Positions 977 to 64,000 of a stretch of 64,000 nucleotides of DNA are shown piece by piece. The notes under the pieces were generated by a model that saw only the letters and a program-made list of their open reading frames with translations, had not been told where the DNA came from and searched no databases. Each line of letters begins with the position of its first letter. The stretch's first letter is position 1. The stretch comes from a virus, in IMG/VR virus record IMGVR_UViG_3300046167_000032, positions 1-64,000 of that record; one strand, written 5' to 3'. The position numbers and the translations under genes were made by a program.

Positions 977-3334
977 TTAAGATATTCTGACCCATATTCC
1001 ACCCGGATATCGACCACTGATATTTGTAGTCATACTTGACATAAACCGCCAAGTACCTGAAGGTGCGCTTTCGACACCATGCCATACACCACCATTTACA
1101 GAACGTTCATTACCGTCTCCGCCAGTGTTCCAACCTAAACCTGCAGGTCTTAAAGTAGAGCCAGCTTTTGTAGCACCGCCCGAAATAGTTCCGTTATTCT
1201 GCAAATGATATCCAAATATATAAGTACCAACAGCACCATAAGATGTACTACCGCCAACACCTGTTAGGTTAGAGCCATCGCCTGTGTATGACGTTGCGGC
1301 TACTGTGCCTGTTACTGTGACACCACTTGATGTTGTTTCAAGTTTCTTAGAACCATTATGGTATAAGTCACACGAGCCATTTCTCTTAAATGCAGCAATA
1401 ATTTCGGAAAAATCACCGTTTGCAATCGTTAACCCACTCCCACTCATGGGCATGTTAAGCCAACCAGAGGTTAATGCATGTTTTATATAAGAGTTACTAC
1501 CATCATGGTAAATCTCTAAATCGTCATGTGTTCCGCAAATTAACTTATCGTTATCTGTTAAATTTACTCCGCCATTAAAAGATGCACCAGCATTGAAATA
1601 AGCACGACCTGCATTTGACATATCAAGGGTAAGGGCTGTGATAGTTGAACCACCATCGTTACCCATAAAGACTATATCTTTATCTTGCTGTCCTGCAACA
1701 AGTCTAAAATCATTAGCTCCTGAATTCTGCAAGAAACCTATGTTAGTTCCACCATCTTTAAAATAAATACCTCCACCATCAGCATCAAGGGTAATGTTTC
1801 CTGCAACGTCTAGTGTTAGGTCGCCAGATGGACTAGCTATAGAGCCATCTAAGTAGAAGTCTTTAAAACGGCGGCTTGTACTCCCTAAATCAACAGTATT
1901 ATTTGATGTAGTGCCATAATTGTTAGTTGGTATGATATTGCCATATCCGAAAGACAAACCAACATGATTTGTAGTTGATGAATGTATTACAAGGTCATCA
2001 GATTTAGTCCCAATACTACCTACAGTTGCGCCGTCTTTGCGGAAGTCTACAATATCACCATCGTTTGTTTGTCTATTAAAAAAAGCAACTTGCCCACCGC
2101 TTCTTGCAACGGATAAGGTAGTAGGAGAAATCTGAATGCCCTGAACACTACTAGAAGATGCAACACCTGCAGTAGTAGTACCCACCAACACGTTGCCTGA
2201 TGAGTCTATGCGCATACGTTCTGTAGATCCACCTGTACCAAGAATGGTATGTGTACCCACTGCGCCTATAAAAGCACCTCCCGAAGAACCACTATCTTTT
2301 ATAACAATATATGCGTTTGCATCACCACTGCTTTGAAAAGTAGCTACTGTATCTACTGTACCTGAGTCCACAGTCAGCCCATCGCTGGTCACTGTGCCTG
2401 TTACATCAATGCCTAAATCTGTTGTCTCAAAGCGTTTACTGTCATTATAATTAAGCTGTACTTTACCGCCTTCAGTAAACATAGCATAAGTTGCGTTAAC
2501 TGCACTATTAACAAATCGCATATTAGATGCGCCGCCAATGTATAAATCACCATTGCCGTTTTCTATTATTTTACTATCGTTACCATCATGGTAAATCTGT
2601 AAATCAGACCCAGCACCAAACTTAGCTTTGACGTTATCATTATACAGTACATCGCCTGTCATTGTGCCACCAGCTAAAGGTAACTTAGTAGCCAATGCTG
2701 TTGTGAGTGTAGAGTTATAATTAGCATCATCATTGATAGCCGCCGCTAACTCATTCAAGTCATTGAGTGTACTAGGTGCGCCACCAATAAGTGTTGTAAT
2801 TTTATCTGTAACGTAAGCTGTTGTAGCTACTTTAGTACTATCATCAGACTCAGCTTGTGTAGTTGCTGTAGTAGTAGATGCTATAGCACCACTAAGTGTA
2901 CCGCTAAGTGAACCACTGATAGTACCTGTAGCTGTTATGTTACGGAAGCCTGTTATATCTTTGTTTGTATTGACTACGACAGCTTTAGATGCTGATACTG
3001 TACCTGCAGTAATACCATCAATACTCTCTAAGTCATTCTCATTAATATCAGCACTACCTATTACAAAGCTACCACCTGTTATAGCACCTGTAGTTGTTAT
3101 AGTAGATGAGCCATTGTCTATATTACCAAAGCCTGACGTTATGCTACCACTATTCAATGCACCTGTAGAGGTTATGTTAGTTGTAGTGATACCATCGACG
3201 TATGCTTTGATAGACTGCTGACTAGCTATACCAGTAGCAGAGTCACTAGCAAGATTATCCTCATCAAGGAAGCTCTTACCATCTAAGATGTTTATCTCTT
3301 GAGCACTATCTGCTAAGTCTCTTGCCTTACTCAT
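977..3334 (-). CDS. Tail fibre 2 (allele A)
   Basis: APSTLNDLNELAAAINDD and GGTMTG fibre motifs, ERMRIDSSG repeat, C-terminal GTWR..M...WVRIS tip domain. Confidence 0.88.
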   Translation of the reverse strand: MSKARDLADSAQEINILDGKSFLDEDNLASDSATGIASQQSIKAYVDGITTTNITSTGALNSGSITSGFGNIDNGSSTITTTGAITGGSFVIGSADINENDLESIDGITAGTVSASKAVVVNTNKDITGFRNITATGTISGSLSGTLSGAIASTTTATTQAESDDSTKVATTAYVTDKITTLIGGAPSTLNDLNELAAAINDDANYNSTLTTALATKLPLAGGTMTGDVLYNDNVKAKFGAGSDLQIYHDGNDSKIIENGNGDLYIGGASNMRFVNSAVNATYAMFTEGGKVQLNYNDSKRFETTDLGIDVTGTVTSDGLTVDSGTVDTVATFQSSGDANAYIVIKDSGSSGGAFIGAVGTHTILGTGGSTERMRIDSSGNVLVGTTTAGVASSSSVQGIQISPTTLSVARSGGQVAFFNRQTNDGDIVDFRKDGATVGSIGTKSDDLVIHSSTTNHVGLSFGYGNIIPTNNYGTTSNNTVDLGSTSRRFKDFYLDGSIASPSGDLTLDVAGNITLDADGGGIYFKDGGTNIGFLQNSGANDFRLVAGQQDKDIVFMGNDGGSTITALTLDMSNAGRAYFNAGASFNGGVNLTDNDKLICGTHDDLEIYHDGSNSYIKHALTSGWLNMPMSGSGLTIANGDFSEIIAAFKRNGSCDLYHNGSKKLETTSSGVTVTGTVAATSYTGDGSNLTGVGGSTSYGAVGTYIFGYHLQNNGTISGGATKAGSTLRPAGLGWNTGGDGNERSVNGGVWHGVESAPSGTWRFMSSMTTNISGRYPGGIWVRIS

Positions 3335-3345
3335 ATTTTATATCC

Positions 3346-3762
3346 TTATGTTGGCTTTGTAGGCCATGTTACTGTATTCGGAAAACCTGCTTGATCTGGT
3401 AGGTTTAGCAAGTCAGTTCGGTATTGTGTCCACTCTGCTTGTTTAACATCTGTAAGTTCAGCCCAACGTAGAGGGTTAGTTACTATAGGGTCTACTTCTT
3501 CTACTAACCTTTGGTCACGCTGACCTCTTAGGTTTGCCGCTAGTTCTGCATCTAGCTCTGCTTGAGTAGGTGCTACATAAGCCGCATAGTCTGAACCGAT
3601 AAGTTCAAGCAATACGCTGTTGTCTACAGTATTATCTGTATCATCAGGCATTAATGAATAAGGTATCCAATCAAACTCTGGATGGTTAATTTCTAGTTCA
3701 AATGCAGTATTCTCTGCGTTTAATGATTGTGCGTTACGCACTTCTGTTATTGTTATTGTCAT
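3346..3762 (-). CDS. Tail fibre assembly chaperone-like protein
   Basis: C-terminal W..YR..LL.LP.QAGFP..V.WPTKP motif; start MTITITE has an AAGGA RBS. Confidence 0.8.
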   Translation of the reverse strand: MTITITEVRNAQSLNAENTAFELEINHPEFDWIPYSLMPDDTDNTVDNSVLLELIGSDYAAYVAPTQAELDAELAANLRGQRDQRLVEEVDPIVTNPLRWAELTDVKQAEWTQYRTDLLNLPDQAGFPNTVTWPTKPT

Positions 3763-3773
3763 TTTTATTTCCT

Positions 3774-6700
3774 TTACGATATTCTGACCCAAAGTGTTGG
3801 TGCTCTTACACCAAACTGCGCACCTGTAGCCGTACCGCCCATGTTTCTCCATGTACCTGAAAGACCACAACTTGCTGCACCATTAAAATCTGTAGCTAAT
3901 GGTCGTTGGTGTGTAGAGCTATAGTAATCTGTTACAAGCGTATTACCTGCCGCAGTAGCCCCAGCCGCTATAGATGTGCTGTTACTATTAGACGTAGCAC
4001 CTACAGTATAAGTACCAACATCGCCACGGGTTGTACTACCTCCAACACCTGTTAGGTTAGAGCCATCGCCGTAATATGTTACAGCGTGTACTTCTTTAAA
4101 ACGACCTCCTGTATAACCAAGCTTAACAGCATTATCTCTTGTTGCTCCAACTTCTGTCGAAGGAAACACTAGGTCGTCAGTAGCAAAGAAACCTAAACCT
4201 GTATCTCCCTGCCCAACACCAAGTGAACCACTGGTAACACCAATACTACCTACATCTGCCCCGCCTTTGCGGAGTTGTATAATAGTGCCATCATTAGTAA
4301 GTCTATCAAAGAAAGCCGCCGCACCACTTGCTCGTCTTGCTTGCACAAAACCTGCTTGACCTATTGTAACAGCATTTTGTGAGCCTTGTAATGTAGAGCC
4401 AATTACAACATAGCCATTTGAGTCTATGCGCATACGTTCTGATGCTGAAGTGCTAAAATGCATATGGTCATCAGAGTGGTCGTAGGTAATAATACCTCTA
4501 TTTGGTGCATTTCCAGTTGTTCCATCAGCAAAATGTATTGAACCATTACTAGCAGTACCAGTTCTAATGGTCATACCAAAATCTCCACCACTATTACCAA
4601 TAACTAAATCATCAGCAGCAGTGTTAAAATCTCCCGGTGTATCTTGTGCTATACCAACTCGCCCTGACGAGTCGATGCGCATACGTTCTGTGTTGTTAGT
4701 GCCTAGTATTAAGTGGCTGTTTGACCTGTTAAACATCCCAACGCCAGTGCCTGAGTAAAGTTCCATCGTGTCTGCTGAGGTTGCGTCTAACCAGATACGT
4801 GCATCGGAAGTGTCTGCAACGTGCAAATCAGCAATAGCGTTAGGTGAACTCGTCCCAATACCAACATTACCTGATGCGTCTATGCGCATGGCTTCTGTGC
4901 CGTTAGGTCTAAACACAATAGGATTGTTGTCTGTGTGTAACAACAAGTCATTAGCTGAATAACTACCAGATATAGAAGCCCCATCACCAACGTAAACTTC
5001 TGTGTTATAACGGGTAAAACCACTGAGGTAGAGGTCTTTCCAACGTACATTTGATGCACCTAAATTTACATTTGCATCGTTAAAAGCACCAGAGTTTGTC
5101 GCTGGGAGTAGAGCATCGGTAATTTTAATACCTTTACCAGATGTGCCGTGAGAACCAATATAAGGGTATGAGCCATTAGCACCAATACTACCTACAGTTG
5201 TGTTGTCTTTTCGGAACTGTGCAATAGTGCCATCAGAAGTTGTTCTGTTAAGGGTTAAAGGTTGTGCAGACGCACGAGTTGATATTAAATCTCCGTTTGG
5301 ACGCATTTCTGCGCCTACAGTAGAAGCTCCTACAGCACTCGTCTTACCCACCAACAAGTTACCTGATGAGTCTATACGCATGGCTTCTGTGTTGTTTGTT
5401 CGTAAAATTAAGGGTTGGTTAGTTTTAGAACCTACAAATGTACCTGTGTTGTCTGCATACAAACGCCCATATGCTGTTGTTACATCTCCAAAATCAATAG
5501 TACCATTTGAACCACTATCCACAGTCAGCCCAGTAGTTGTAAGCGCACCCGTCATTGTACCACCAGCTAGTGGTAGTTTAGTAGCAATAGAGTTTGTTAT
5601 AGTAGTACTAAATGATGCATCATCGTTTAAAGCTGCGGCTAACTCATTAAGTGTATCAAGAGAACCCGGTGAGCTATCTACAAGGTTAGCAATAGCTGTG
5701 TCTGTATAAGCTTTGATAGACTGTTGTGTGGCTAGTGCTGTTGCACTGTTAGATGCCATGTTATCTTCATCAAGTATGTTTGTAATAGACACAGAGCCTG
5801 TACCAGATAAACTATCAAACTCAACTGATCCACCAACGTCTAAGTTACCTGTCATAGTACCGCCAGATAAGTTTAGTTTTTCTGTATCATTAGCTAATGG
5901 AATCCAGTTACCTGCATGTGCGAAGTAACCTTTACCTGTTGCATGAACATGAGCAAACATACCGTGATAAGTTGATGCACTTGGTAGGTCTGATAATTGA
6001 GAATATACGTTACCGAATAAAACTTTATTGCCGTTACCATCAATGTCACCTGTCATAGTGCCACCAGCTAGACCTAAGAACCTAGCATCTGCCGCAGTCT
6101 TACTGTAGTGATCTGCAAGTTGGAATGTACCATAACCTACGATGTCAATAATATCACCAGCAGTAGCACCTGCACTTAGTACTACAGTAGAACCACTTGT
6201 AGCTGTTACGTCTGTACCAACTAAAAGTTTTACACCATTAAGATATACATCTACATAGCCTACATCATATGTTGCAGAGAACGTAGTCTGTCCTGATGTA
6301 GCAGTATATGTGTTACGACCAGATGTACCATTAACTGATGAACCTGCCGCTTGCCAACCACCCGATCCACTACGAACAAACATAATGTTACTTGTAGTGT
6401 TAAAATACAATGCACCTGCTATTAAAGCGTCACCGTCATTGTCTACTGAAGGAGCAGATGATTTAGCACCTAAGTATCTGTCGTCAAAGTCATCATAAGA
6501 ATTAGCGGCATTAGTAGCACTGGTAGCCGCAGCTGTTGCTGAGTTAGCTGAGTTTGTAGCTGATGTTGCCGCATTGGTAGCTGAAGTAGCCGCTTGAGTA
6601 GCACTTGCCGCCGCCGCAGTATTAGAACCTGCGATACTATCAACATAAGTTTTTGTAGCCGCATCAGTATTAGCAGTAGGTGTACCTAATCCAGTAATCT

Positions 6701-8385
6701 TATTGCCACCCATAGCTATAGCAGATGCCATAGTACCACCTGATTTTAGTAAGGCAGTTGTGTCAACGTAGTTCTTAGTAGCACCATCTTGGTTAGCAGT
6801 AGGATCACCTAGTCCAGTTATCTTACTTGTACCCATAGCTATAGCACCAGACATAGTGCCGCCTGATAAGTTTAACTTAGTAGCATCTTGTGCATCTACA
6901 TAACCTTTACGAGATAGCTCATCATTTGTTGCAGGGTTAGCTGTAGATGTTACAGCATTAGTACCCATTACAATGTCACCAGTTAGTGTTCCACCTGCAA
7001 GAGGTAACTTAGTAGCTATAGAATTAGTAATAGTAGTTGAGAAGTTTGCATCGTCATTGATTGCCGCAGCTAACTCGTTAAGAGTGTTTAGTGCATCAGG
7101 AGATGAGTCAACTAAAGCAGATACCTCAGTGTCTACATATCCCTTAGTAGCGGCATCTGTTGAAGCACTTGGAGCACCTAAGCCTGTTACTTTACTACCG
7201 CCCATAGCAATAGCACCTGACATAGTTCCACCAGACAGGTTAAGCTTTAGTGCATCTGCAGTATCTACATAGTTCTTTGTAGCCGCATCTTGAGCACTGG
7301 TTGGATCAGTAACATTAGCAATAGTTGTACCTGTAACATCTAGTGTACCGTTTACAGTTACATTGTTAAATGTAGATAAACCTGACCCTGCAGTTACATT
7401 ACCTGTTACATTGCCTGTAAGATTACCAGTAACGTTACCTGTGATATTACCTGTTACGTTACCTGTAAGTGGGCCTACAAGACTTGAACCTGTAATTGTT
7501 GTACCTGTGATTGCGGCTGTAGAAGAAGCACCAATAATAGTACCATCAATATTACCACCGTTTATATCTACAGTAGCTAACGTAGCCTGACCAGATGTAG
7601 AGACTGTAGTAAAGCTACCAGCAACGGCTGTTGATGCACCTATAACTGTATTGTCTATGTTACCTGCATTAATGTCTACAGTAGTTAGTGTTGATGTTCC
7701 TGTAGCAGTTAGGTCTGTCACAGTAGCAGGTGAAGCTGATGAAGCACCAATAGTTGTACCATCAATAGCACCTGCATTAATGTCCACAGTAGCCAGAGTA
7801 GCAGTTCCTGTAGCACTCAGTGTAGTAAATGAGCCAGCACCTGCAGTTGTACCACCTATAGGTTACGTTATCTATAGCACCAGAGTTAATGTCTACAGAA
7901 GTAATAACACCTGTAGTAATATTAGCTGTGCTTAGAGTAGTTGTTCCAGTAACACCTAATGTACTTCCTATAGTAAACGTACCTGCAACTGCACCATTAA
8001 TATCTACATCTAGTGTATCTATGTGTGCTGTACCATCTAAGTATAAATCTTTAAACTCTAAACCAGATGTACCTAAGTCTATATCATTAGTTATTACAGG
8101 TATAATAGCCCCATCAGAGAAGCGTATTTGTTCTACTGCGGCTGAAGATACCTCTACAAAGACACCTACTTGATTAGTAGCAGTGTTTATGACAACTTTG
8201 TTTAGTGCGTCAACATCACCAATAAGAGGAATGTAACCACCTTCTCCTATTGATCCATCGTGTTTGTGTCCACTTGACACTGCAAATGCATCACGGAGTT
8301 TGTTGTACTCGGCGTTAATAGGTGCTGCACGAAGTGTAGCTGTTGGTATTATGTCTGCTGAAGACTGTCTTACGTAACCTGCCAA
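3774..8385 (-). CDS. Tail fibre 1 (allele A), split by one extra base at about 7861
   Basis: ORFs 7777-8412 and 3774-7787 join into the protein that is intact at 59035-63813. Copy A reads ACCTATAGGTTACG and copy B reads ACCTATAGTTACG. TTG start at 8385 follows AGGAG. Confidence 0.88.
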
Positions 8386-8389
8386 AGTA

Positions 8390-9931
8390 TTATCTCCTGT
8401 CGGCTGTCTCATACGTCAAGGCTACTGCCTGTATAGTATGACTTGCATTTGTATTATTCGTAACGTAACTTATCGAAACAGAGTTACCTGATCCAGATAT
8501 ATTTGTAAGTGTTTTAGGTGAGGGATTACCATCATATATACCACCTGCTCCATATATAGCTGTACCATAAATTGAAGCCGCACCCTCTGTAGTAAACTCA
8601 TAGTTAGTAGGGTTGCTTGTCCCTGTGTCATCGTAGTCATAAGAGACACCAACAAAAACTTCTGTATCACCCTCTGATTTTAAGTAAGTGTTTACTTTAT
8701 GTACTATCTTACGTACTTCTGGGTCTTCCATATAGTAATAGGGTGTTTGATATAAACTAAAGATAGAGTTACCACCAAAGCTATTACCTTTTTCTTGTCT
8801 ATGTACTCTACCAGAACCATCTCCATGTATTACATGTTCAAATTGTCCTATGTATCCACTAGCTACACAATTTGCTTCCATACCAGTAAGCTGACTATAC
8901 TCAAAAATACTCTGCTTATTCTGACTCTTACGTATACCACCTATTAAAGATAGAGAAGCATCGTTTTTAAAGAAGAATCTAAACTGTGACTTCTTCCTAA
9001 GTACTACAATAGCTATATCTTCTATTTGTTCTGATAGATAATAATTATCAAATATAGATTGTATCTCTTTAGATACAGTAGCAAGTTCAACATCACCAAT
9101 TTTATCAGTACCAGAAACAGGACGTATACCATCAGGTCCTAAGAAAAGTAAATCACCACCAAACTCTACCACAGAATCAGGTGCAAGGCAACCCATATTT
9201 GAAGTAACATTTTCTAATATAAAATTAGACGAATTATTACCTGTTAGTCTTTTAATATTATTAGAACCAAAAATATATAATTGATTACGAAACTTTTTAA
9301 CTGCTGTTATAGTATAGCCTACATTAATAACACCAGCACCATTAGCAGGGCTAAAATCAGAATAATTTAATGGAGCACTAAAGTATAGGTTGTATGGCTC
9401 AGAAGAATCCCCACACAAAAATAAATGAGATGCAAACTCTTCAGAATACTTAGGGTTGTTTGGAGCTTGTGCGTGTGTTATCTGTGTGTATGCAGTACCA
9501 TCATATGTTGCCGCAGGGTTGATACCATCTGTAAGTAGTATAACTTCTCCTGACCAGTTAAAACTAGTAAAACGAATCCTACTAACATTAGTCATGTCAG
9601 GATTACCAGCTTCTGGTATAGCTACCCAAGAACTATTAGAGTTCTGCCATCTATATAGATAGTCATGACCAGATGTAGGTTTTCTACAGGCAAATATACC
9701 ATCGTGTAAATTACCATTGACTGTAAGGCCAAGTATAGCACCTGTACCGGGAACAGTACCATAGTCGTTAGCATAACCACTGATACGACGATACCCACCC
9801 GAAAGGGCAGGTTCATAGTTAATCATTCTTATAGCACTACCCGATAAGTTAGTAGCTTGGGTTAGCGGGTCTATATTAGTGACCAACCCCCCAGCACAAA
9901 CTGATAAGTATGTACTTAGTCTATCTGCCAT
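8390..9931 (-). CDS. Tail tubular/nozzle protein B-like (podovirus tail)
   Basis: 513-aa beta-rich protein between adaptor and fibre genes. Confidence 0.65.
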   Translation of the reverse strand: MADRLSTYLSVCAGGLVTNIDPLTQATNLSGSAIRMINYEPALSGGYRRISGYANDYGTVPGTGAILGLTVNGNLHDGIFACRKPTSGHDYLYRWQNSNSSWVAIPEAGNPDMTNVSRIRFTSFNWSGEVILLTDGINPAATYDGTAYTQITHAQAPNNPKYSEEFASHLFLCGDSSEPYNLYFSAPLNYSDFSPANGAGVINVGYTITAVKKFRNQLYIFGSNNIKRLTGNNSSNFILENVTSNMGCLAPDSVVEFGGDLLFLGPDGIRPVSGTDKIGDVELATVSKEIQSIFDNYYLSEQIEDIAIVVLRKKSQFRFFFKNDASLSLIGGIRKSQNKQSIFEYSQLTGMEANCVASGYIGQFEHVIHGDGSGRVHRQEKGNSFGGNSIFSLYQTPYYYMEDPEVRKIVHKVNTYLKSEGDTEVFVGVSYDYDDTGTSNPTNYEFTTEGAASIYGTAIYGAGGIYDGNPSPKTLTNISGSGNSVSISYVTNNTNASHTIQAVALTYETADRR

Positions 9932-13190: not shown

Positions 13191-16100
13191 TCATTTATTC
13201 CTAAACATTTTGTATGCACCTACTAAGTAACAGATTGGTTCTAATATAGCTCTATAGAAACGTCCTAACTTATCACGTTTTTTATTTTGCATCTCTGCTC
13301 TAAGGTCTGCAGTACGATGTCTCGCAATATTCTCTAGTGTTTTACGCACATACTTATAATCTTTTTGATATGCAAGTTCTACTAAAGGTAGGAATAATGT
13401 ATGGTATCCTACTTCATGTTCTTTTGTCAAGTTATTATTTGAGTATTTTAACCACACAGCCTGACGGTATGAACCAAAGCCATAAGACTCATTCATAGCA
13501 GTACATACTATTTTACTACTACTACTATTTCCTTTATTACCACTATCTTTATTGCTTTTTGTTTTTGTTACAGGTGCTGCTTTAGTTTCTTTCTTTGGGA
13601 ATGTACGAGTTAATACATTAGTTCCCGGTTGACTAGTCCATACTGCACCTGCCATATTAGGATCACCACCACTAGCATCTGTACCAATTTTAGCTTTAGC
13701 AGTTTTAGATAACTGATTCTTTTTAGCTGGTGTGACAGCAGTTTTCTTATTCGTACTTGCAATACTTGCTTCTTTGTCATTAAACTTACCAGCAGGTTTA
13801 TATTTATCAGCACCTTCAAATACTCTTTCGTAAACTGTAGATTTAACTACTGGTACATCATAATCATCATTTCTATAAACAACTCTATTTTCTGCATTGC
13901 GTAATGCAAACCCTTCTTTATCTGCATACACACCTTGTGATTTACCATCGGTAATAGCACCAACAGCATAACCATCTACTGCAGTACCACCCGTTGTTGC
14001 ATACCTTCTGTTTAAGTCAGCGGCTTGTGCTAAATTTGCGTCTGGTAAGTTTTGCCATGCTGTAGCTTGATTAGAATCACCAGCTTTATATGTTTGAGCA
14101 GGTGTAGATGTTTTAGAACCTAAACCACTTGGGCGCATCTTAGGTGTTGCTGATGTAATACTTAAAGGTATTTCTGAAGCATTAGTTCTAGCTGCACGAT
14201 CCGCATCTGTAGTATCTACTAATGAAAAATTAGTTCTAGCGGCTTTTTCATCCTCAGTGTTAATTTGTGGAAATGGGCTATATCCATCATCTGCTGTTAC
14301 TTGAGATGGGTCTGCGCCTCTTGGTGGTATAGGTGCTGTATAACCTTCACCATAGTTAGAAGCAGAACCACCACCAACAGTAGCTGTTGTCGGAAATACC
14401 TGAGAGTTTCTTTGTAAATCAGTAGGTGTATATGTACCTGCTCTGGGGTCTGAAGCAGTAAATGCAGGATTTGTAGCGTCTGTTGGGAAGTTATATACTT
14501 GATCTGGAAAAACATCAGGTTGTTGATCTGCTCTTGGTGGTAGCATATCGTTATTAAAAAATTTATTAGTGGCTTCTAAGTCTTGTGTGGGAGGTAATAA
14601 ACTATCTATATAATTATCTTTACGTGTTACACCCCTAGTTAAATTAAAAACATCTGTACCCATTATATTATCTGCAGTTGGTTTTTTACCAGCTAATTGA
14701 TTTTTAAGGGCTTCATTAACACTATTAGTTGGTAGTTGTGTAACTGGGAAAGTACTAGTTTCACTAGGGTCATTACTGGCATTTGTAAATGGTAAAGTAC
14801 TGGTTGCACTAGGATCACCGTATGCGTCAGTACGTATAGGTGGAGTTGGTCTATAACCATCATCTGCTGTTTGGGGTGGTGGTAAAAACCTATCTTTTTC
14901 ACTACTTGCTAGTGTGTAAGGATCAGGTGTAGATGTAACTATAGGAGCTTCTAATTGTTCTAAACCAGTTAACTCTGGTGTAATAATAGGCGTAGTAGTA
15001 CCTGTTGGTAGTTTAGCACCCACACCTGCTACAGATACTGTAGATGCACGTTTGGCTTGTTCTTCTGGTGACATATCTCTGTAAGTTGTAAGTGGAGTAC
15101 CTTGCAATGCTTTAACAGCACCTACTGGTGCAACATCAGCCATTGCTTCTCTAGCTAAGTCATAATCATCTGGAAGAACACCTCCAGTTGGTGCAAAGAC
15201 TGCATCTGATAAAGCTTGTCGTTGCTCTTCTGTGACATTGCCCCTTACTTTATTTGTAAGCATCTCTGTCATTTGTTGATCTGTAGTAGTTGCAGGTACA
15301 TCTTTCAATACGGATTCTACAGCATCTTGTACAGAAACAGTAAGTTCAGTAGCACCTGACGTTGGGTTTACTCTAAATATTGGAAGATCAGTACTTGTTT
15401 TCTTATCTACTTCAACACTAGTCTTTTTAGCAGCTTCAATCTCTTCTGGTGTTTTGCCTAATAAACCACCTATAAAATCTACTACACCACCAATTAATCC
15501 ACCAGAACCTTTTGCTAACAGACCAAGAACCTCTGTAAACTCACCCTTTAAATCCTTTCCAATAATACCAGAGGCTATTCGTTTATTAATAGTATCTTGT
15601 ATTTTTTTACTTTGATGTGACATAGCCATCATACCAAAAATACCTAAAGGTCCCATAAAACCCATTGCAACTTTTACAAGAGTACCCTTTGTACCCGTTT
15701 GATCTTGCGCAAGTTTTAACAACTCTTCATTACTAATATTATCATAATCAACAGGTTTAGGGGCTACTGCAACGTCAGTACGATCATCACTACCTCTTGA
15801 ACGTATTTCTTGCGTAGCGGCATTAGTATCTGCGACTATATCATCGGTTGGTGTAGTACCTGTACCTACAGAACCTTCACCTGTATACAAGAAGTACCCA
15901 TCTGGAATAGGGAATGTAGCTACACCACCTATGAATGGTATCATAATATTATTACCAGCTGCATTACGATATTCTTTGTATTCAATAGCAGCTTCACCCA
16001 TAAGTTTCTTGAAGTCTATTGTAGTACGTACAGGTTGTGTAATCTCTGGTGTGAGTCTACGAGTAGCTGTTGTAGTAGGTGCAACAGGTTGTCCACCAGT

Positions 16101-16529
16101 ATATACAGGTTCTTGTCCAGTACGTACAACATTTGTAGTACCAGTAGTTAAACCACCAACAGCCATGTTAAGTTCACCACCATCATCATCAGGTTCACCA
16201 CTAGCTACAATAATTAAATCATCCATACCAAAAGGTAAATCGTCTGGCATTGTAGCTTCATCACTATTACCCATTTGTCCCATAGCTTCCATTTTCTTTA
16301 GACCCATCTTAGCTTCTTGTCGTAAGTTCATAAGCTTCTCAAGCCCGTGGTATCTTGTAACCTCTTCAGATAGAATAAACTCACCTTTACTTACGTTAGC
16401 TTCAATATCATCACGAACACCTTCACGAGTTCCACCAATAGGAACTTCATTACCAGACTCTTCGTCAATCATACCGCCCTCATCTTTTAAGCCACCACGT
16501 GCGAATAGTTCCATTTGTTTTTCCATCAT
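13191..16529 (-). CDS. Large putative virion protein with Pro/Thr-rich middle
   Basis: 1112 aa between portal and scaffold; DDIEANVSKGEFIL motif; C-terminal KIVCTAM domain. Confidence 0.6.
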   Translation of the reverse strand: MMEKQMELFARGGLKDEGGMIDEESGNEVPIGGTREGVRDDIEANVSKGEFILSEEVTRYHGLEKLMNLRQEAKMGLKKMEAMGQMGNSDEATMPDDLPFGMDDLIIVASGEPDDDGGELNMAVGGLTTGTTNVVRTGQEPVYTGGQPVAPTTTATRRLTPEITQPVRTTIDFKKLMGEAAIEYKEYRNAAGNNIMIPFIGGVATFPIPDGYFLYTGEGSVGTGTTPTDDIVADTNAATQEIRSRGSDDRTDVAVAPKPVDYDNISNEELLKLAQDQTGTKGTLVKVAMGFMGPLGIFGMMAMSHQSKKIQDTINKRIASGIIGKDLKGEFTEVLGLLAKGSGGLIGGVVDFIGGLLGKTPEEIEAAKKTSVEVDKKTSTDLPIFRVNPTSGATELTVSVQDAVESVLKDVPATTTDQQMTEMLTNKVRGNVTEEQRQALSDAVFAPTGGVLPDDYDLAREAMADVAPVGAVKALQGTPLTTYRDMSPEEQAKRASTVSVAGVGAKLPTGTTTPIITPELTGLEQLEAPIVTSTPDPYTLASSEKDRFLPPPQTADDGYRPTPPIRTDAYGDPSATSTLPFTNASNDPSETSTFPVTQLPTNSVNEALKNQLAGKKPTADNIMGTDVFNLTRGVTRKDNYIDSLLPPTQDLEATNKFFNNDMLPPRADQQPDVFPDQVYNFPTDATNPAFTASDPRAGTYTPTDLQRNSQVFPTTATVGGGSASNYGEGYTAPIPPRGADPSQVTADDGYSPFPQINTEDEKAARTNFSLVDTTDADRAARTNASEIPLSITSATPKMRPSGLGSKTSTPAQTYKAGDSNQATAWQNLPDANLAQAADLNRRYATTGGTAVDGYAVGAITDGKSQGVYADKEGFALRNAENRVVYRNDDYDVPVVKSTVYERVFEGADKYKPAGKFNDKEASIASTNKKTAVTPAKKNQLSKTAKAKIGTDASGGDPNMAGAVWTSQPGTNVLTRTFPKKETKAAPVTKTKSNKDSGNKGNSSSSKIVCTAMNESYGFGSYRQAVWLKYSNNNLTKEHEVGYHTLFLPLVELAYQKDYKYVRKTLENIARHRTADLRAEMQNKKRDKLGRFYRAILEPICYLVGAYKMFRNK

Positions 16530-31500: not shown

Positions 31501-32622
31501 TGCCTAAGCTACCTAGATATGTACAAGAGAGAGTATCACCTCACGGGGTGATCTCTTACAGATTTAATCCGCCGCAGAACTTAGTGGATGAGGGTGTGGT
31601 ATCACGTCAAGAGTATGGCACTGATCTCAAGGAAGTGCGTAGTATTGTGAAGGAGTTGAACGCAGACATTGACCATTGGCGTGAACAAAAAGCGACAGTG
31701 GTACAGATAAAGCCATCAAGTAAGGTGACAGATTTGATTAACTACTACTATCAATCTAATGATTTCAATATGTTACGAGACACAACTAAGGTGGATTACA
31801 GATACTTCCTAACCATACTCCATCAGACTATGGGTGGTAAGAAGTACGACAGTGTAACAACTAAGGTTGCCAAGCAAGCATATGAAGGAGTGGGTTAAGC
31901 GTGGTATTAGTTTCGCTAATCATGCTGCAACATGTGCAAGTAGGGTATACAACTACGCTATTGACATGGAACATGCCACACAAAATCCTTGGACTAGCAT
32001 CAAGCGTAAGGCATTGCCACAGCGTAAGGTTGTATGGTCACATGGTGATGTTGTCAGGTTTCTTGATTATTCGTACAGCGATTTTGACTACAGGAATGTG
32101 GGATTGATTGTGCACATGGCATATGAATGGTGTCAACGTCTAGGTGACATGCGTACACTGAAGTGGGAGAACATTGACTTGCGTACACAGCGACTAGAGT
32201 TAGAGCAGAGTAAGCGTAGGGCAGATGTATCACTACCAATATCAGATGATCTATGCCACATGCTGAATGAACAGCGTAATGACTTTGGCTTTCAAGATTA
32301 TGTAGCACCACACCCACGACCAATGGGCGGTAAGTACCAACCATATGCAATGGAACGTTTGTCTAAGGTAGGTAGACGTGTCATGAGATTAGCTAAGTTA
32401 CCAGAAGAGTTACGTCTAATGGACTTACGTAGAACAGGTGTGACACAGATGGTTGATGCAGGTGTACCAATTGGACAAGTGATGTCTGTTACTGGACACA
32501 ATCATGTGTCTTCTGTGCAACCATATATGAAACATACATATGATTCTGCAAATAATGCCTTGACACAGAGAAATGTAAGTGTACAATCGAGTGCAGCGAG
32601 TAACATAGAAAGTGATACATAA
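31500..32622 (+). CDS. int: Tyrosine integrase/recombinase, split by one extra base at about 31886
   Basis: CQRLGD (R), QSKR (K), MDLRRT (R), VTGH (H), QPY (Y); TATGAAGGAGTGG gives Y-E-E-W when one base is removed. Confidence 0.88.
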
Positions 32623-38359: not shown

Positions 38360-39253
38360 ATGAACACAGTAACAACAGTAGACACAAACAACTTTGCAGA
38401 GATGGCACAAGCTATGGGTATGGGTGCTGACTCACCTAAGACTAGCAAGTCAGCTAGTACATTGGCACGTCTACGCATTCATCACACACCCATCATGGGT
38501 CAGCAAGAGATTGCAGGTAAGATGAAGAACGTAGAAGTCATTGGCGGCGGTGCATATAAACTAGAGATACCAGATGGTCCTACGTACTACGCTGATCAAG
38601 TATCTATCCGACCATTCCTACAGCGATTCATGTATAAGAAGTTCGTCAAGGGTAGTGATAAGACACCTAACAAGTTCGTCAAGACTGTCATGGCTAATGA
38701 TCTTAACAGTGACATGAAGGACAACGATGGTGGCTTCAACTGTGGTAAACCTGCAGGGTTCATCAAGGATTGGGCATCACTACCTGACAGTATGAAAGAC
38801 TTAATCAAGTCAATCAAACGTGTGCGTGCATTGTTTGGTACAGTAGAGTTGGTTAATCCTACTGATGCTGATGGTAATCCTGTTGATGTAGATACTACTG
38901 CATTCATCTGGGAGATTGATAATCGTGATGCATTCAAAACATTAGGTGAACAGTTTGCCAAGTTATCTAAGATGCGTAGGCTACCACCACAGCATTACAT
39001 TACCTCTACTACTAAGGAAGTACCACTACCAAATGGTAGCAGTTTCTATGTACCAGAGACTGACATTGACTTGTCTAACACACTAGACATGGACAATGAG
39101 TCGCAAGCAGTCTTTGCTAACTTTGTTGCGTGGATTGAGAACTACAATACATACATTCTCAATGCATGGAATGAGAACATGCACAAGAATGAAGAGGTAG
39201 ACACAGATACTGTCGAAGCCTTTGTGGACATTGACGCAGAGGACTTCGTATAA
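38360..39253 (+). CDS. Putative ssDNA-binding protein
   Basis: Follows the polymerase, has its own promoter, acidic C-terminal tail ending in aromatic/hydrophobic residues. Confidence 0.55.
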   Translation: MNTVTTVDTNNFAEMAQAMGMGADSPKTSKSASTLARLRIHHTPIMGQQEIAGKMKNVEVIGGGAYKLEIPDGPTYYADQVSIRPFLQRFMYKKFVKGSDKTPNKFVKTVMANDLNSDMKDNDGGFNCGKPAGFIKDWASLPDSMKDLIKSIKRVRALFGTVELVNPTDADGNPVDVDTTAFIWEIDNRDAFKTLGEQFAKLSKMRRLPPQHYITSTTKEVPLPNGSSFYVPETDIDLSNTLDMDNESQAVFANFVAWIENYNTYILNAWNENMHKNEEVDTDTVEAFVDIDAEDFV

Positions 39254-40107
39254 TGAACCACCCTGCTGAACTGGCGATAAATCAGTATCTTGAAGATGCT
39301 ACATCTGGTAAATCTAGTATGTCTGAAGAGACTATACAACAGATTGGTAAGGATGTAATGGATTCAGTACGCCGCCAGTTCGGTGGGGGCAACAGTCGTG
39401 ATGAGTTTCGTTTACGTATGTCTAACATAGGTAAGCCTACTTGTCAGCTTTGGTTTGCTAAGAACAAGCCAGAGAAAGCGTTGCCCAAACCGACAACTTT
39501 CGTGATGAACATGTTACTTGGAGACATAGTCGAAGCTGCATTTAAAGGTATCATTACCGAAGCAGGTGTAGCCTATGAAGACGAAGATAACTTTGTTCAA
39601 CTTGAATTAAACGAAGATACAATACATGGGTCATACGATCTTATTATGGATGGTGCATTAGATGATGTTAAGTCAGCATCTGATTGGTCATATCGTAACA
39701 AGTTTGAATCGTATGATACACTCAGTAAGGGTGATTCATTTGGTTACATTGGTCAGCTTGCAGGTTATGCAAAGGCTACTGGTAAGAAAGCTGGTGGTTG
39801 GTGGGTAGTCAACAAGGCTAATGGTAACATCAAGTATGTACCTGCCGATGGACTTGACTTGGATACAGAGATAGCTAAGATACAAGACACTGTAGACACA
39901 GTTAATAAGAATGAGTTTAAAAGATGTTTCAATCCCGTACCAGAAACGTTTCGGGGTAAGCCATCAGGTAATACTATTCTAAATCCTAACTGTAAGTTCT
40001 GTGACTTTAGGTTTGAATGCTTTCCAGAACTACAAGAGTTACCATCTAAGGTATCACAAGCTAGAGTTAAACCAACAGTAAGTTATATTACTGTAAACGA
40101 GGGTTAA
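39253..40107 (+). CDS. PD-(D/E)XK (Cas4-like) exonuclease
   Basis: GSYD...DDVKS, QLAGY, C-terminal CKFCDFRFEC. Confidence 0.8.
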   Translation: MNHPAELAINQYLEDATSGKSSMSEETIQQIGKDVMDSVRRQFGGGNSRDEFRLRMSNIGKPTCQLWFAKNKPEKALPKPTTFVMNMLLGDIVEAAFKGIITEAGVAYEDEDNFVQLELNEDTIHGSYDLIMDGALDDVKSASDWSYRNKFESYDTLSKGDSFGYIGQLAGYAKATGKKAGGWWVVNKANGNIKYVPADGLDLDTEIAKIQDTVDTVNKNEFKRCFNPVPETFRGKPSGNTILNPNCKFCDFRFECFPELQELPSKVSQARVKPTVSYITVNEG

Positions 40108-40110
40108 ACC

Positions 40111-40563
40111 ATGAAGGCAAAGCAGTACGCTGCCGCAAGGAAGCATGGGTATAGGAGTGGGTTAGAGGTCAGGACAAGAGACTATCTAATTGAGCATGAG
40201 ATGCCATTCAAATATGAGGAGATCAAGATTGAATGGGAAGACCTTATGTACCGCACCTATACCCCTGACTTTGTATTGAAGAACGGCATTATAATTGAGA
40301 CAAAAGGAATGTTCAAAGCTGAAGATCGCCGTAAACATCTATTAATAAAGAAGCAACACCCTAAGTTAGACATACGATTTGTATTTACTAACAGTCGTTC
40401 TAAGATAAGTAAGGGTGCTAAAACTAGCTATGGACAATGGTGTGAGAAAAATGGTATACAGTATCATGATCGTATCATTCCATTGGAGTGGCTGAAAGAA
40501 AAAGGCAAAGACAAACATCCAGATTTAATTAACTGCCCATACAAAAAGATAAAGAGAGGATAG
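40111..40563 (+). CDS. T7 endonuclease I-like Holliday junction resolvase
   Basis: YRSGLE, YTPDF, IETKG, LDIRFVF, YGQWCEK. Confidence 0.93.
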   Translation: MKAKQYAAARKHGYRSGLEVRTRDYLIEHEMPFKYEEIKIEWEDLMYRTYTPDFVLKNGIIIETKGMFKAEDRRKHLLIKKQHPKLDIRFVFTNSRSKISKGAKTSYGQWCEKNGIQYHDRIIPLEWLKEKGKDKHPDLINCPYKKIKRG

Positions 40564-55780: not shown

Positions 55781-57718
55781 TTAAAGTGGGATTATAGCTA
55801 ATTGCATTGAGGAATCATACCATTGAAGATAGCCTTGGTTTTGAGTTTCATGTTCCCCAGCCGTAACTCTAATTTTCTGACCTGAAGAAAGATATGCACT
55901 ACTCCAACTGCCAAACGGATTACTGATACTGCCTGTACTTGAGCTAGGAGAACCGCCATAAAACGGATTTGTGCTATTAACGACATTACCATTAACATAT
56001 ACTCTATATGAGTAGCCATAATAACCACCTGTTGAAGTATAATACCTATATTTTAGTAGGGCACTTATCGCAAATACAAGACAATCAGAAGTTGCAGTAT
56101 ATTCCAGCAAATACTGACCAGCATTGTATTTTTCTAAAGCACCCTTGTCGTCATTATATGCCGCATTATTACCAGAAGTTATTGTAACAACGCTCGCTCC
56201 ACCAGCAGGGTCTGTCCATTGAGCAGTACCAGCAGATGCGTATGTAAGCAGTTGGTTTGCAGAACCGCCACTAGGGATGTGATTGTTACCATTACCTGTT
56301 GGGTGTGTGTAGTTATTAGCACTTGTTGCTATGCCATCAAGCTTAGAACCATCTGATGCTACATCACGTCCGTCTACTGTACCTGATACAGCTATATTGC
56401 CTGTTACGTCAACTCCGCTTGATGTTGTTTCAATTTTCTTTGAATTGTCGTAACGTAGATTTACAGCACCATCCTTACTAGCACCTATATAAACTTCACC
56501 TGATGAACTACCAATCTCAACATAATTATCATCTTGTATATACATATTACCAGTAGTATTAGTAACAAATGTATGTGAACCATTGTGATAAATCTGTAGG
56601 TCATCAGCATTACCAAATCTAGCTTTCTCATTATCTCCAAAGCTAATTGAGTGACCATTGACATCTAAAGCTCCACCTAGTTGTGGTGTAGTGTCACTCA
56701 CAATGTCTGTGCTTAGATTATCAAATGATGTTTTAAACGCTGCTATGTCTACACCATCTACTGTACCTGATACTGCAACGTTGCCTGTTACTGATATGCC
56801 TGTTGATGTTGTGGCTAGTTTAAGGTTGTTGTCGTAGTAAAGTTTTACTGCGCCATCTTTTATAAACTCAGACATTTTTCCGTTTGCGCCGCTACCATCA
56901 CTTACTAACTGTATCATTGAACCGTTAGTATCTATAGATAGTATGCCATCCCCCACATCTTCTATGTATGAGTTATTACCGTCATGGTATATTCTAAAAT
57001 CAGACCCAGCACCGAATATGGCTTTGTCGTTGTCACCGAATGACAAGTCACCTGTCATTGTGCCACCAGCTTTTGGTAACTTGGTAGCCAATGCTGTTGT
57101 GAGTGTAGAATTATAGTTAGCATCATCATTGATAGCCGCAGCTAACTCATTCAAATCATTGAGTGTGCTTGGTGCGCCACCTATAAGTGTTGTAATCTTA
57201 TCTGTAACGTAAGCTGTTGTAGCTACCTTAGTACTATCATCAGACTCAGCTTGTGTTGTTGCTGTAGTAGTAGATGATAGAGAACCGCTAAGTGTACCAC
57301 TGATAGTACCTGTAGCTGTTATGTTACGGAAACCTGTTATATCTTTGTTTGTATTGACTACGACAGCTTTAGATGCTGATACTGTACCTGCAGTAATACC
57401 ATCAATGCTCTCTAAGTCATTCTCATTAATATCAGCACTACCTATTACAAAGCTACCGCCTGAGATAGCACCTGTAGTTGTTATAGTAGATGAGCCGTTG
57501 TCTATATTACCAAAGCCTGACGTTATGCTACCACTATTCAATGAACCTGTAGAGGTGATGTTAGTTGTAGTGATACCATCGACGTATGCTTTGATAGACT
57601 GCTGACTAGCAATACCAGTAGCAGAGTCACTAGCAAGATTATCCTCATCAAGGAAGCTCTTACCATCTAAGATGTTTATCTCTTGAGCACTATCTGCTAA
57701 GTCTCTTGCCTTACTCAT
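55781..57718 (-). CDS. Tail fibre 2 (allele B)
   Basis: First ~220 aa nearly identical to 977-3334; different C-terminal part. Confidence 0.88.
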   Translation of the reverse strand: MSKARDLADSAQEINILDGKSFLDEDNLASDSATGIASQQSIKAYVDGITTTNITSTGSLNSGSITSGFGNIDNGSSTITTTGAISGGSFVIGSADINENDLESIDGITAGTVSASKAVVVNTNKDITGFRNITATGTISGTLSGSLSSTTTATTQAESDDSTKVATTAYVTDKITTLIGGAPSTLNDLNELAAAINDDANYNSTLTTALATKLPKAGGTMTGDLSFGDNDKAIFGAGSDFRIYHDGNNSYIEDVGDGILSIDTNGSMIQLVSDGSGANGKMSEFIKDGAVKLYYDNNLKLATTSTGISVTGNVAVSGTVDGVDIAAFKTSFDNLSTDIVSDTTPQLGGALDVNGHSISFGDNEKARFGNADDLQIYHNGSHTFVTNTTGNMYIQDDNYVEIGSSSGEVYIGASKDGAVNLRYDNSKKIETTSSGVDVTGNIAVSGTVDGRDVASDGSKLDGIATSANNYTHPTGNGNNHIPSGGSANQLLTYASAGTAQWTDPAGGASVVTITSGNNAAYNDDKGALEKYNAGQYLLEYTATSDCLVFAISALLKYRYYTSTGGYYGYSYRVYVNGNVVNSTNPFYGGSPSSSTGSISNPFGSWSSAYLSSGQKIRVTAGEHETQNQGYLQWYDSSMQLAIIPL

Positions 57719-57737: not shown

Positions 57738-58046
57738 TCATTCTTCTACTAACATCCAAGATGTAATATCTTCATTCCAAATATATTTGTTTTCTATATC
57801 AGGTATTTCTACTGGTGCATTCCATTGACAAGTAGTTTCGTTTAATACCCATGAAGGGTATGGTTTTGGGTGTATAAAAGCGTCTCTAGTGCTATCGTAA
57901 GTACCACCTACACTAGCATAATTTTTTCTTATGTTGCTATTGTATGAGGTTTGTACCCACGTACCTTCAAGCTCACTAATATAATCTTCATCAGCAACAA
58001 TTACCTCTACAACTGTGCCTTCTATAATCTTTGCGTAATGTGCCAT
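57738..58046 (-). CDS. Small partner of glycine-rich fibre-tip protein
   Basis: MAHYAKI...WVQTSYN..IRKNYA..G.TYD..RDAFI.PKPYPSW.L.E.TC.W.AP. Confidence 0.7.
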   Translation of the reverse strand: MAHYAKIIEGTVVEVIVADEDYISELEGTWVQTSYNSNIRKNYASVGGTYDSTRDAFIHPKPYPSWVLNETTCQWNAPVEIPDIENKYIWNEDITSWMLVEE

Positions 58047-58059
58047 ATTTTATTTACCT

Positions 58060-59031
58060 TTAAGAGATAGCGTATCTAACAATAACAATTCCAGAACCGC
58101 CACCGCCACCATATCTAGTGCCATCGTAACCAAGAGATCGGCCACCACCGCCACCTCCACCTGTGTTAGCAGAAGCTGAAGGGGCATAGGGTTGGCTTCC
58201 ACTAGCACCATTTGCACCGCCACCAGACCCACCAGAACCACCTGAGTAATCCCAAGCACCACCACCTCCGCCACCAGCGTAGTAAGTTCCATTTAGCCAC
58301 TGAGAACCATTACCTCCAGCAGTACCATTAGAGCTACCATAACCTGTTTGATTAGTCCCAGATTGACTTGCGCCTCCACCGCCAGCACCAGCAGAATAAT
58401 AGCTGTTAGTTCTATTACCTCCACTATTACCTTGACCTGAAGTTCCTGAACCACCTGATTTATTATCTGGCCCACCTGATGCTCCACCACCAGAACCCCC
58501 AGAGTTACCATTATAGCCTTCACCACCACCGCCACCGCCGCCAGTTGAGGTCAAACCAAAGCCAGAACTGTTAGAACCATTGCTACCTGATGATAAATAA
58601 CCACCGCCGTTACCGCCAGCACCTATAGTAATACTATATCCTTGAGCAGAAGAGTTAGCAGAACCTGTCCTGTACCCTCCAGCACCACCACCGCCGCCGT
58701 GGGCTGTACCACCGCCTCCACCACCAGCTACTACAAGATACTGTAAAGTGTTTGAACCTGCGGCATTTCCAATAGAGCTGACAGTAAATGTACCTGACGA
58801 AGTAAAGACATGATATTTATAACCACCAGAAGTAGATGTTGTACCACCAGAGGCTGAAATATACTGTGCATTAGCCTTACCATGACCTTGAGACATAGCA
58901 ATTTGACCATCAGCATCATCAAATAGAGTTCTTACAGCACTGTCATTCATGGTGATTTGTGCTGTACCACTTAGGCCAAGCTCTACATTTACGTCATTTA
59001 AAGATATCTGTCCGCTAGATGGTAACGTCAT
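58060..59031 (-). CDS. Glycine-rich putative adhesin / fibre-tip protein
   Basis: MTLPSSGQISLNDVNVELG attachment-type N-terminus, many polyglycine runs, GGGGSGIVIVRY end. Confidence 0.75.
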   Translation of the reverse strand: MTLPSSGQISLNDVNVELGLSGTAQITMNDSAVRTLFDDADGQIAMSQGHGKANAQYISASGGTTSTSGGYKYHVFTSSGTFTVSSIGNAAGSNTLQYLVVAGGGGGGTAHGGGGGAGGYRTGSANSSAQGYSITIGAGGNGGGYLSSGSNGSNSSGFGLTSTGGGGGGGEGYNGNSGGSGGGASGGPDNKSGGSGTSGQGNSGGNRTNSYYSAGAGGGGASQSGTNQTGYGSSNGTAGGNGSQWLNGTYYAGGGGGGAWDYSGGSGGSGGGANGASGSQPYAPSASANTGGGGGGGRSLGYDGTRYGGGGGSGIVIVRYAIS

Positions 59032-63813: not shown

Positions 63814-63817
63814 AGTA

Positions 63818-64000
63818 TTATCTCCTGTCGGCTGTCTCATACGTCAAGGCTACTGCCTGTATAGTATGACTTGCATTTGTATTATTCGTAACATAACTTA
63901 TTGAAACAGAGTTACCTGATCCAGATATATTTGTAAGTGTTTTAGGTGAGGGATTACCATCATATATACCACCTGCTCCATATATAGCTGTACCATAAAT
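63818..64000 (-). CDS. 3' end of tail tubular protein B (copy B), truncated by window edge
   Basis: Matches 8390-8572 with two SNPs. Confidence 0.9.
   Translation of the reverse strand: MYGTAIYGAGGIYDGNPSPKTLTNISGSGNSVSISYVTNNTNASHTIQAVALTYETADRR

Follow-up and report, generated by a model that had tools for sequence, protein, structure and literature searches.

How close relatives of a marine phage come to carry tail fibres with nearly identical shafts and widely different distal ends is the question raised by IMG/VR record IMGVR_UViG_3300046167_000032. The first 64,000 nucleotides of this record (total length 80,374 bp), referred to here as the window, contain large tail-fibre genes whose distal halves are punctuated by short islands of conserved DNA. 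The combined evidence makes it probable that the fibre modules are reassorted at these islands by motif-guided homologous recombination.

The number of fibre genes depends on how the record is read. Positions 1-25159 and 54568-80374 are 95-98% identical at the nucleotide (nt) level, except in the distal halves of two large genes and in one further region, and the contigs of close relatives measure 54.6-54.9 kb. On this basis, the record represents ∼1.47 turns around a genome of ∼54.5 kb in which two haplotypes are joined. With 2-8% divergence and unlike fibre ends, the two passes cannot be the terminal repeat of a single molecule; the join probably arose when the assembly walked through two co-occurring strains. 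With the wrap placed at ∼54.5 kb, the second copies beyond that point are alleles rather than extra genes, including those at 56-61 kb that the initial annotation had treated as part of one genome. The real phage thus possesses two fibre genes, A and B, not four. The fibre open reading frames (ORFs) are as follows, with lengths in amino acids (aa).

977-3334, minus strand: A1, tail-fibre gene A of haplotype 1 (785 aa; ORF and translation, tail-fibre PHROGs, motif map)
3774-7787, minus strand: B1, tail-fibre gene B of haplotype 1, main ORF (1337 aa; ORF, tail-fibre PHROGs, motif map)
7777-8412, minus strand: N-terminal 211-aa piece of fibre B of haplotype 1, split from the main ORF by an extra C near 7862
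55781-57718, minus strand: A2, tail-fibre gene A of haplotype 2 (645 aa; shaft as in A1, two type I modules, unrelated tip)
59035-63840, minus strand: B2, tail-fibre gene B of haplotype 2 (1601 aa; shaft as in B1, then units of type II, III, III and I and a Peptidase_S74 chaperone tip)

The PHROG matches of these genes are overwhelmingly to tail-fibre families which, together with the Peptidase_S74 domain at the B2 tip and the position beside tail genes, identifies them as receptor-binding fibres. A Pfam search of the fibres returned nothing besides Peptidase_S74. In A1, a conserved N-terminal shaft is followed by a type I module, a type II domain, a type III module, a second type I module and a GDGSNLT...WVRIS tip, while the distal half of B1 comprises four ERMRIDS-type units, two VGSIG units and a WVRIS tip (module types are defined below).

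The islands within these distal halves are listed here.

2201-2224 (A1), minus strand: ERMRIDS island; other copies at 4419-4441, 4668-4691, 4875-4897, 5367-5389 and 60682-60704
5367-5390, minus strand: ERMRIDS copy 1 of B1, with a mapped crossover at 5382-5390
2009-2024 (A1), minus strand: VGSIG island, with a mapped crossover at 2009-2016; other copies at 4239-4254, 5181-5196 and 60496-60511
1254-1282, minus strand: GDGSNLTGVG island, start of the WVRIS-type tip; an exact 29-mer with a second copy at 4042-4070, common to 19 loci, at which block ends fall
1304-1341, minus strand: ETTSSGVTVTG island, end of the type I module; alleles at 59509-59546 and 56398-56435
2585-2620, minus strand: FGAGSDLQIYHD island, start of the type I module; allele at 56981-57016, second copy at 1498-1515, 18 unique block ends
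4846-4865, minus strand: VGIGTS island after ERMRIDS copy 2 of B1; an exact 20-mer with an allele-like copy at 60878-60897 and block ends at 4846 and 4866
5547-5564, minus strand: GGTMTG motif, where the fibre B haplotypes cease to be alike; equivalents at 2654-2671 (A1), 57050-57067 (A2) and 60976-60993 (B2)
5025-5039, minus strand: RWKDLYLSG motif, a block boundary additional to those of the initial annotation, where several 96-99% identical blocks begin or end

The ERMRIDS 22-mer is exact at 2202 and 4420, with one mismatch at 4669 and four each at 4876 and 5368. Similarly, the VGSIG 15-mer is exact at 2010, 4240 and 5182 and has one mismatch at 60497; the 38-mer at 1304 differs from that at 59509 by one mismatch; and the GAGSD 17-mer, within the FGAGSDLQIYHD island, is exact at 2601 and 56997. 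The repeat coordinates and mismatch counts of the initial annotation were thereby confirmed exactly, and none of 100 shuffled sequences matched any listed repeat. All motif copies are in frame, on the minus strand and in direct orientation, with no copy on the reverse strand. Furthermore, a map of exact 16-mer sharing between haplotype 1 and 81 other loci, generated independently of that earlier list, recovered the same islands at lengths of 16-39 nt, each common to 6-25 loci, and added LDADGG (1774-1816), IYHDG (1500-1515) and AVGTY (1220-1238).

Motif-anchored alignments resolved the distal halves into three repeated module families. These were used instead of blastp comparisons of the four fibres with composition statistics off, which gave long, low-identity and uninformative alignments. 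The type I module runs from FGAGSDLQIYHDG to ETTSSGVTVTG, so that GAGSD and ETTSSG are its two ends. The type II domain, of ∼165 residues, runs from ERMRIDSSGN through FRKDGxTVGSIG to RFKDLYLSG; ERMRIDS and VGSIG therefore belong to one domain. The type III module runs from LDADGG to LTLDMS. The blocks between islands, described initially as unrelated, align as diverged module copies with 32-52% aa identity among the copies in the window, and an alignment of 20 type II copies reveals invariant or near-invariant residues along the whole domain. The blocks are therefore diverged homologues, and the islands are invariant module cores. Both the module alignments and the 16-mer islands display short conserved motifs alternating with variable segments.

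An AlphaFold model of the type II domain, of moderate confidence (predicted local distance difference test score, pLDDT, 67), places ERMRI and FRKDGxTVGSIG in beta strands. This model suggests that the motifs are beta-strand cores of one domain, and not linkers between modules as they had been called. A Foldseek search with the model gave no credible match. These modules are not covered by any experimentally solved structure, and the sole match of a PDB sequence search was the deposited sequence of the cyanophage P-SCSP1u fibre, whose distal part is not resolved in the structure (PMC10575957). The same peptides were found in cyanophage, pelagiphage and roseophage fibres, and a full-text literature search for the motif peptides returned no paper.

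The conservation of these motifs extends to silent sites. To avoid the bias of linker choice, which affects the measure based on the initial list of linkers (a selection-biased codon identity of 0.81 vs 0.52), alignment columns were classified by amino-acid conservation alone. Shared residues had a codon identity of 0.76 where at least three invariant residues form a run, 0.57 at isolated invariant residues and 0.52 in variable columns, against 0.42-0.44 expected from the codon usage of the phage; ungapped flank comparisons dilute quickly with indels and served as a rough baseline only. Over 176 loci, the mean column-level excess was 0.19 in runs and 0.05 at isolated residues (Mann-Whitney p=0.002). 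The wobble-position conservation that had been noticed initially is therefore real, and it goes beyond what amino-acid constraint and codon bias explain (0.76 vs 0.57 vs 0.42). Within the close gene pool, several codons are near-fixed against the preference of the genome, such as CGT for the first arginine of ERMRIDS (24 of 24) and GAC for the aspartate (35 of 36). Glycine wobble positions inside the motifs vary freely, and conserved isolated glycines show codon identity at or below expectation.

The codon preference depends on position and not on residue, with GAC in MRID and GAT in GDGS and YHD, which speaks against selection for optimal codons. A universal DNA signal is rejected, as other lineages write the same peptide with other codons: MRIDSSG in pelagiphage HTVC142P and in roseophages CRP-1 and CRP-227 uses AGT TCT or AGC AGC, not TCA TCA. 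The MRIDS codon excess is nearly gone once distant phages are included. The DNA identity is therefore a property of the recombining gene pool.

Two crossovers were mapped to within 8-9 nt, each inside a motif. In the comparison of A1 (H1A) with B2 (H2B) and fibre B of locus L021 (L021B), A1 is a mosaic whose left side resembles the L021 fibre (80:7 informative sites) and whose right side resembles B2 (6:103). The switch falls within the VGSIG codons, in the interval from 2016 to 2009 (permutation p<=2e-4). Similarly, a targeted three-way alignment of B1 (H1B) with loci L094 and L095 revealed a left side like L094 (98:4) and a right side like L095 (0:98), with the switch between 5390 and 5382, at the ERMRIDS codons (permutation p<=5e-4).

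The B1 motif that contains this second switch (5367-5390) reads EAMRIDS (GAA GCC ATG CGT ATA), and four of its bases within 12 nt are unlike both parent-like sequences. Either the true parents were unlike L094 and L095 or the changes are clustered at the joint.

Junctions also accumulate at the motifs across the population. Among 23 close relatives, 65 of the 123 unique ends of blocks with at least 88% identity lie within 12 nt of one of eleven motifs defined by amino-acid sequence, compared with 14% expected (p 7e-25), an enrichment somewhat inflated by alignment behavior described below. Most of the remaining ends fall on extensions of the same motifs. Measured against the islands listed initially, 14 of 37 block ends lie within 15 nt (17% expected, p 0.002). 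Along the distal half of B1, a tiling of blocks matches contigs from different metagenomes at 93-99% identity, and the tiles end at the four ERMRIDS copies, VGSIG, RWKDLYLSG, VGIGTS and GDGSNLT. When the type II domain is divided into three sub-blocks (a, b and c, clustered at 88% nt identity), independent contigs hold incompatible combinations on either side of each of the two motifs. The two crossovers (2009-2016 and 5382-5390), the block-end enrichment and the sub-block reassortment thus all locate natural junctions within or next to motifs, as the initial annotation had proposed. A one-sided pair analysis anchored on motifs is biased by construction and was excluded as evidence.

The resulting diversity is combinatorial, in agreement with the module shuffling envisaged at first. 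Fibre A shafts of the 23 close relatives are 95-98% identical, while their distal architectures are widely different, and 41 distal architectures were counted among 68 complete fibre genes across all loci. A type I module can be succeeded by any of the three module types or by one of several tips, and in both genes the whole distal cassette is swapped beyond KLPxAGGTMTG.

The process that is probably responsible would operate as follows. The islands, at 16-39 nt, are the only stretches nearly identical between diverged module variants, and divergence-tolerant homologous recombination, whether its partners are co-infecting relatives or the two paralogous fibre genes, would therefore resolve inside them. 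Such exchange, presumably during co-infection, would reassort sub-blocks of domains, whole modules, and tips with their chaperones, and its repetition would keep the silent positions of the islands uniform within the gene pool. On sequence alone, island identity can be read as the cause or as the result of recombination. Two genes that may take part are encoded next to each other.

39253-40107, plus strand: Cas4-domain (PD-(D/E)XK) exonuclease, candidate recombination nuclease (phrog_1990, E 9e-37)
40111-40563, plus strand: T7-type endonuclease I, a Holliday-junction resolvase (PF05367, E 5e-52)

The initial annotation had suggested an exonuclease, a single-stranded DNA-binding protein (SSB) and a resolvase of the phage; the first and last of these are present, and the phage's own exonuclease and resolvase may participate in the exchange. 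Its view that neither a diversity-generating retroelement (DGR) nor an invertase is at work also held. No match to the reverse transcriptase family PF00078 was found in the 80-kb record, although control genomes do match, and none to the serine invertase family PF00239. All repeats are direct, and inversion is therefore impossible. The fibre genes showed no inverted sites, and a site-specific recombinase with sites to match was likewise not found. Recombinases of the Rad52-like, RecT and Erf kinds were also not identified among the encoded proteins.

A gene of the tyrosine integrase family (31867-32622, 251 aa) lies in the replication module. A 297-aa ORF (38360-39253) directly upstream of the exonuclease has no Pfam or PHROG match, and among the members of the ESM Atlas clusters nearest to it, a minority carry DUF5895 or Pam3_Gp34; by position, it is possibly an annealase or SSB.

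Several results weigh against this interpretation. Neither an annealase nor an SSB was identified among the encoded proteins. At the two mapped crossovers, perfect identity between the present-day relatives of the parents extends over just 8-12 nt. When abutting donor switches were sought automatically under strict criteria, one genuine case emerged in a distal half, along with several artefacts from a frameshifted relative, and pattern scans of other viral and metagenome contigs gave no match to the A1 VGSIG junction. BLAST block ends are pulled to conserved motifs within about 20-30 nt, which accounts for the inflation mentioned above, and the pairwise codon counts are not independent, as the copies are related by descent. 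GGTMTG, the main junction, shows hardly any codon excess (0.53 vs 0.44), and the largest swaps need just ordinary recombination in the long conserved shaft and the downstream genes. Finally, all sequences are metagenome assemblies, and the record itself joins two haplotypes.

These points bear on the competing explanations to different degrees. It is unlikely that peptide constraint and descent suffice, that is, that the peptides are structurally essential, the module copies share ancestry, the islands have no special role in recombination and the breakpoints are apparent products of alignment extension. The occurrence of the same peptides in cyanophage, pelagiphage and roseophage fibres does show that the amino-acid constraint is real, the MRIDS codon excess almost vanishes with distant phages, and BLAST ends are attracted to motifs. 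However, isolated invariant residues carry near-random codons while runs do not, the two crossovers lie inside motifs with 80-103 informative sites on each side, and the sub-blocks around the motifs are found in incompatible combinations. Codon choice by translational selection, with conserved residues preferring the most accurately read codon, is scarcely credible: C-ending codons (GAC, AAC, TAC, GGC) are common at several motif positions, yet one and the same residue has different fixed codons by position (GAC/GAT, GGC/GGT), CAT and TTT are preferred elsewhere, and isolated invariant residues lack the excess. That the mosaic alleles are chimeras, made by an assembler switching strains at shared k-mers, is very improbable. 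Independent contigs span the majority of the B1 junctions, a number of alleles were each recovered from 3-5 independent metagenomes, and the blocks are 91-98% rather than 100% identical to partners that come from other samples; even the right-hand partner of the A1 mosaic, which is on the same record, is only 91% identical. The arguments for chimerism are that the record demonstrably joins two haplotypes, that islands of 16-39 nt are possible switch points for a small-k graph and that the A1 junction is absent from the other contigs scanned.

The islands could also be dedicated recombination signals, with their DNA selected for evolvability as the target of a specific phage recombination function, an explanation that is improbable. 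Silent-site identity above expectation in the motif runs, a codon preference set by position, codons fixed against the genome preference (GAC 35/36, CGT 24/24) and the encoded exonuclease and resolvase would all fit it. Against this, glycine wobble positions inside the motifs are free, other lineages use other codons with an excess that fades with phylogenetic distance, GGTMTG as the commonest junction is almost devoid of excess, a site-specific recombinase with corresponding sites was not found and the repeats are without exception direct. Selection on DNA is not needed for the pattern, which homogenisation by recombination accounts for. The related proposition, that the nucleotide sequence of the islands beyond the peptide is kept by selection because fibres can then reassort, is similarly doubtful. 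Motif-guided homologous recombination therefore stands as the probable explanation, and the initial interpretation was largely right.

The genes around the fibres add to the description of the phage. The 513-aa tail gene next to the fibres shares 54-56% aa identity with those of Roseobacter RCA phages CRP-1, -2, -9 and -13 and 37% with that of Puniceispirillum phage HMO-2011. Genes for the terminase, portal and capsid are on the same strand as the fibres, at higher coordinates. With a genome of ∼55 kb and shared structural genes, the phage is a marine podovirus of the HMO-2011 type. The third region that diverges between haplotypes (13202-15724) lies between the portal and capsid genes, inside an ORF (13191-16529, 1112 aa) with no PHROG match, which may encode another variable virion protein.

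Fibre B is one continuous ORF of 1516-1586 aa in relatives. In haplotype 1, the extra C near 7862 (relative to haplotype 2) is recognized from the alignment and from a 1-nt change of offset between repeat families D4 and D5, and the split reflects an error of assembly or else a recent frameshift. The shaft of fibre B (7522-7793 and 62951-63330) contains 108-nt in-frame tandem repeats (family D1), with one copy fewer in haplotype 1 than in haplotype 2; fibre length therefore varies by repeat number besides module swaps. Between the two fibre genes of haplotype 1 lies an additional gene.

3346-3870, minus strand: tail-fibre assembly (chaperone) gene (phrog_4628 tail fiber assembly, E 3e-24), in haplotype 1 only

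Haplotype 2 holds other ORFs at this place: at 57738-59031, after the S74-chaperone fibre, are a 323-aa glycine-rich ORF (phrog_2295) and a 102-aa ORF (phrog_7759). Haplotype 1 combines the assembly gene with GDGSNLT...WVRIS tips on both fibres, and haplotype 2 has neither. Tip and chaperone seem to travel together.

The mechanism is not a new principle. In the gp37/gp38 distal fibre and adhesin genes of T-even phages, recombination at conserved motifs was described in the 1990s (Tetart et al. 1996, 1998, as cited in Trojet et al. 2011, PMC3157838), and modular phage evolution is an older concept (Botstein 1980, as cited in PMC3157838). As in the T-even genes, conserved motifs alternate with variable segments in host-recognition fibre genes and a dedicated diversity enzyme is not involved; the resemblance concerns the mechanism and not the sequence family. 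The phage group is new for this mechanism, being represented by an uncultured HMO-2011-type podovirus of marine bacteria. The motifs also differ (ERMRIDSSGN, VGSIG, IYHDG, ETTSSG and GDGSNLT here, His boxes and glycine-rich motifs in T-even phages), and exchange here takes place within a single domain of ∼165 residues as well as from one paralogous fibre gene to the other. Divergence-tolerant recombination driven by homology is also known to give rise to phage mosaics (De Paepe et al. 2014, PMC3945230), with traces of homology at fragment borders as seen here. In that work, however, the exchange concerned whole genes or gene borders in temperate coliphages with Rad52-like recombinases, whereas the present joints are intragenic and in frame, and the enzymes identified were limited to a Cas4-like exonuclease and an endonuclease I.

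The HMO-2011 type and RCA phages CRP-1, -2, -9 and -13 (PMC6918029, PMC8528129) have genomes of similar size (about 54-55 kb), and the CRP-1 fibres carry the same ERMRIDSSGN and GGTMTG motifs; the distal halves share just these motifs and modules of 38-50% identity, and the motif codons differ. DGRs and the fibre switches operated by invertases or shufflons reach the same end, a varied receptor-binding fibre end, but the variation here distinguishes the genomes of a population, whereas a programmed switch acts inside a single genome.

Phages of the HMO-2011 type, together with the roseophages related to them, reportedly belong to the abundant phage groups of the sea (PMC6918029), and their host range shapes the mortality of major bacterial lineages. 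If selection did act on the DNA of the islands, one of the most abundant phage groups in the ocean would carry a built-in combinatorial generator of host range, acting below the single-domain level (three sub-blocks per ∼165 residues) and between two fibre genes. Independently of that, exchange at joints explains dozens of distal architectures among relatives with 95-98% identical shafts, and host range would be expected to change as a result. The islands offer natural splice points for fibre-swap experiments in cultured relatives. Fibres that are patchworks, exchanged at a small and predictable set of joints, provide a grammar for reading fibre diversity in viromes.

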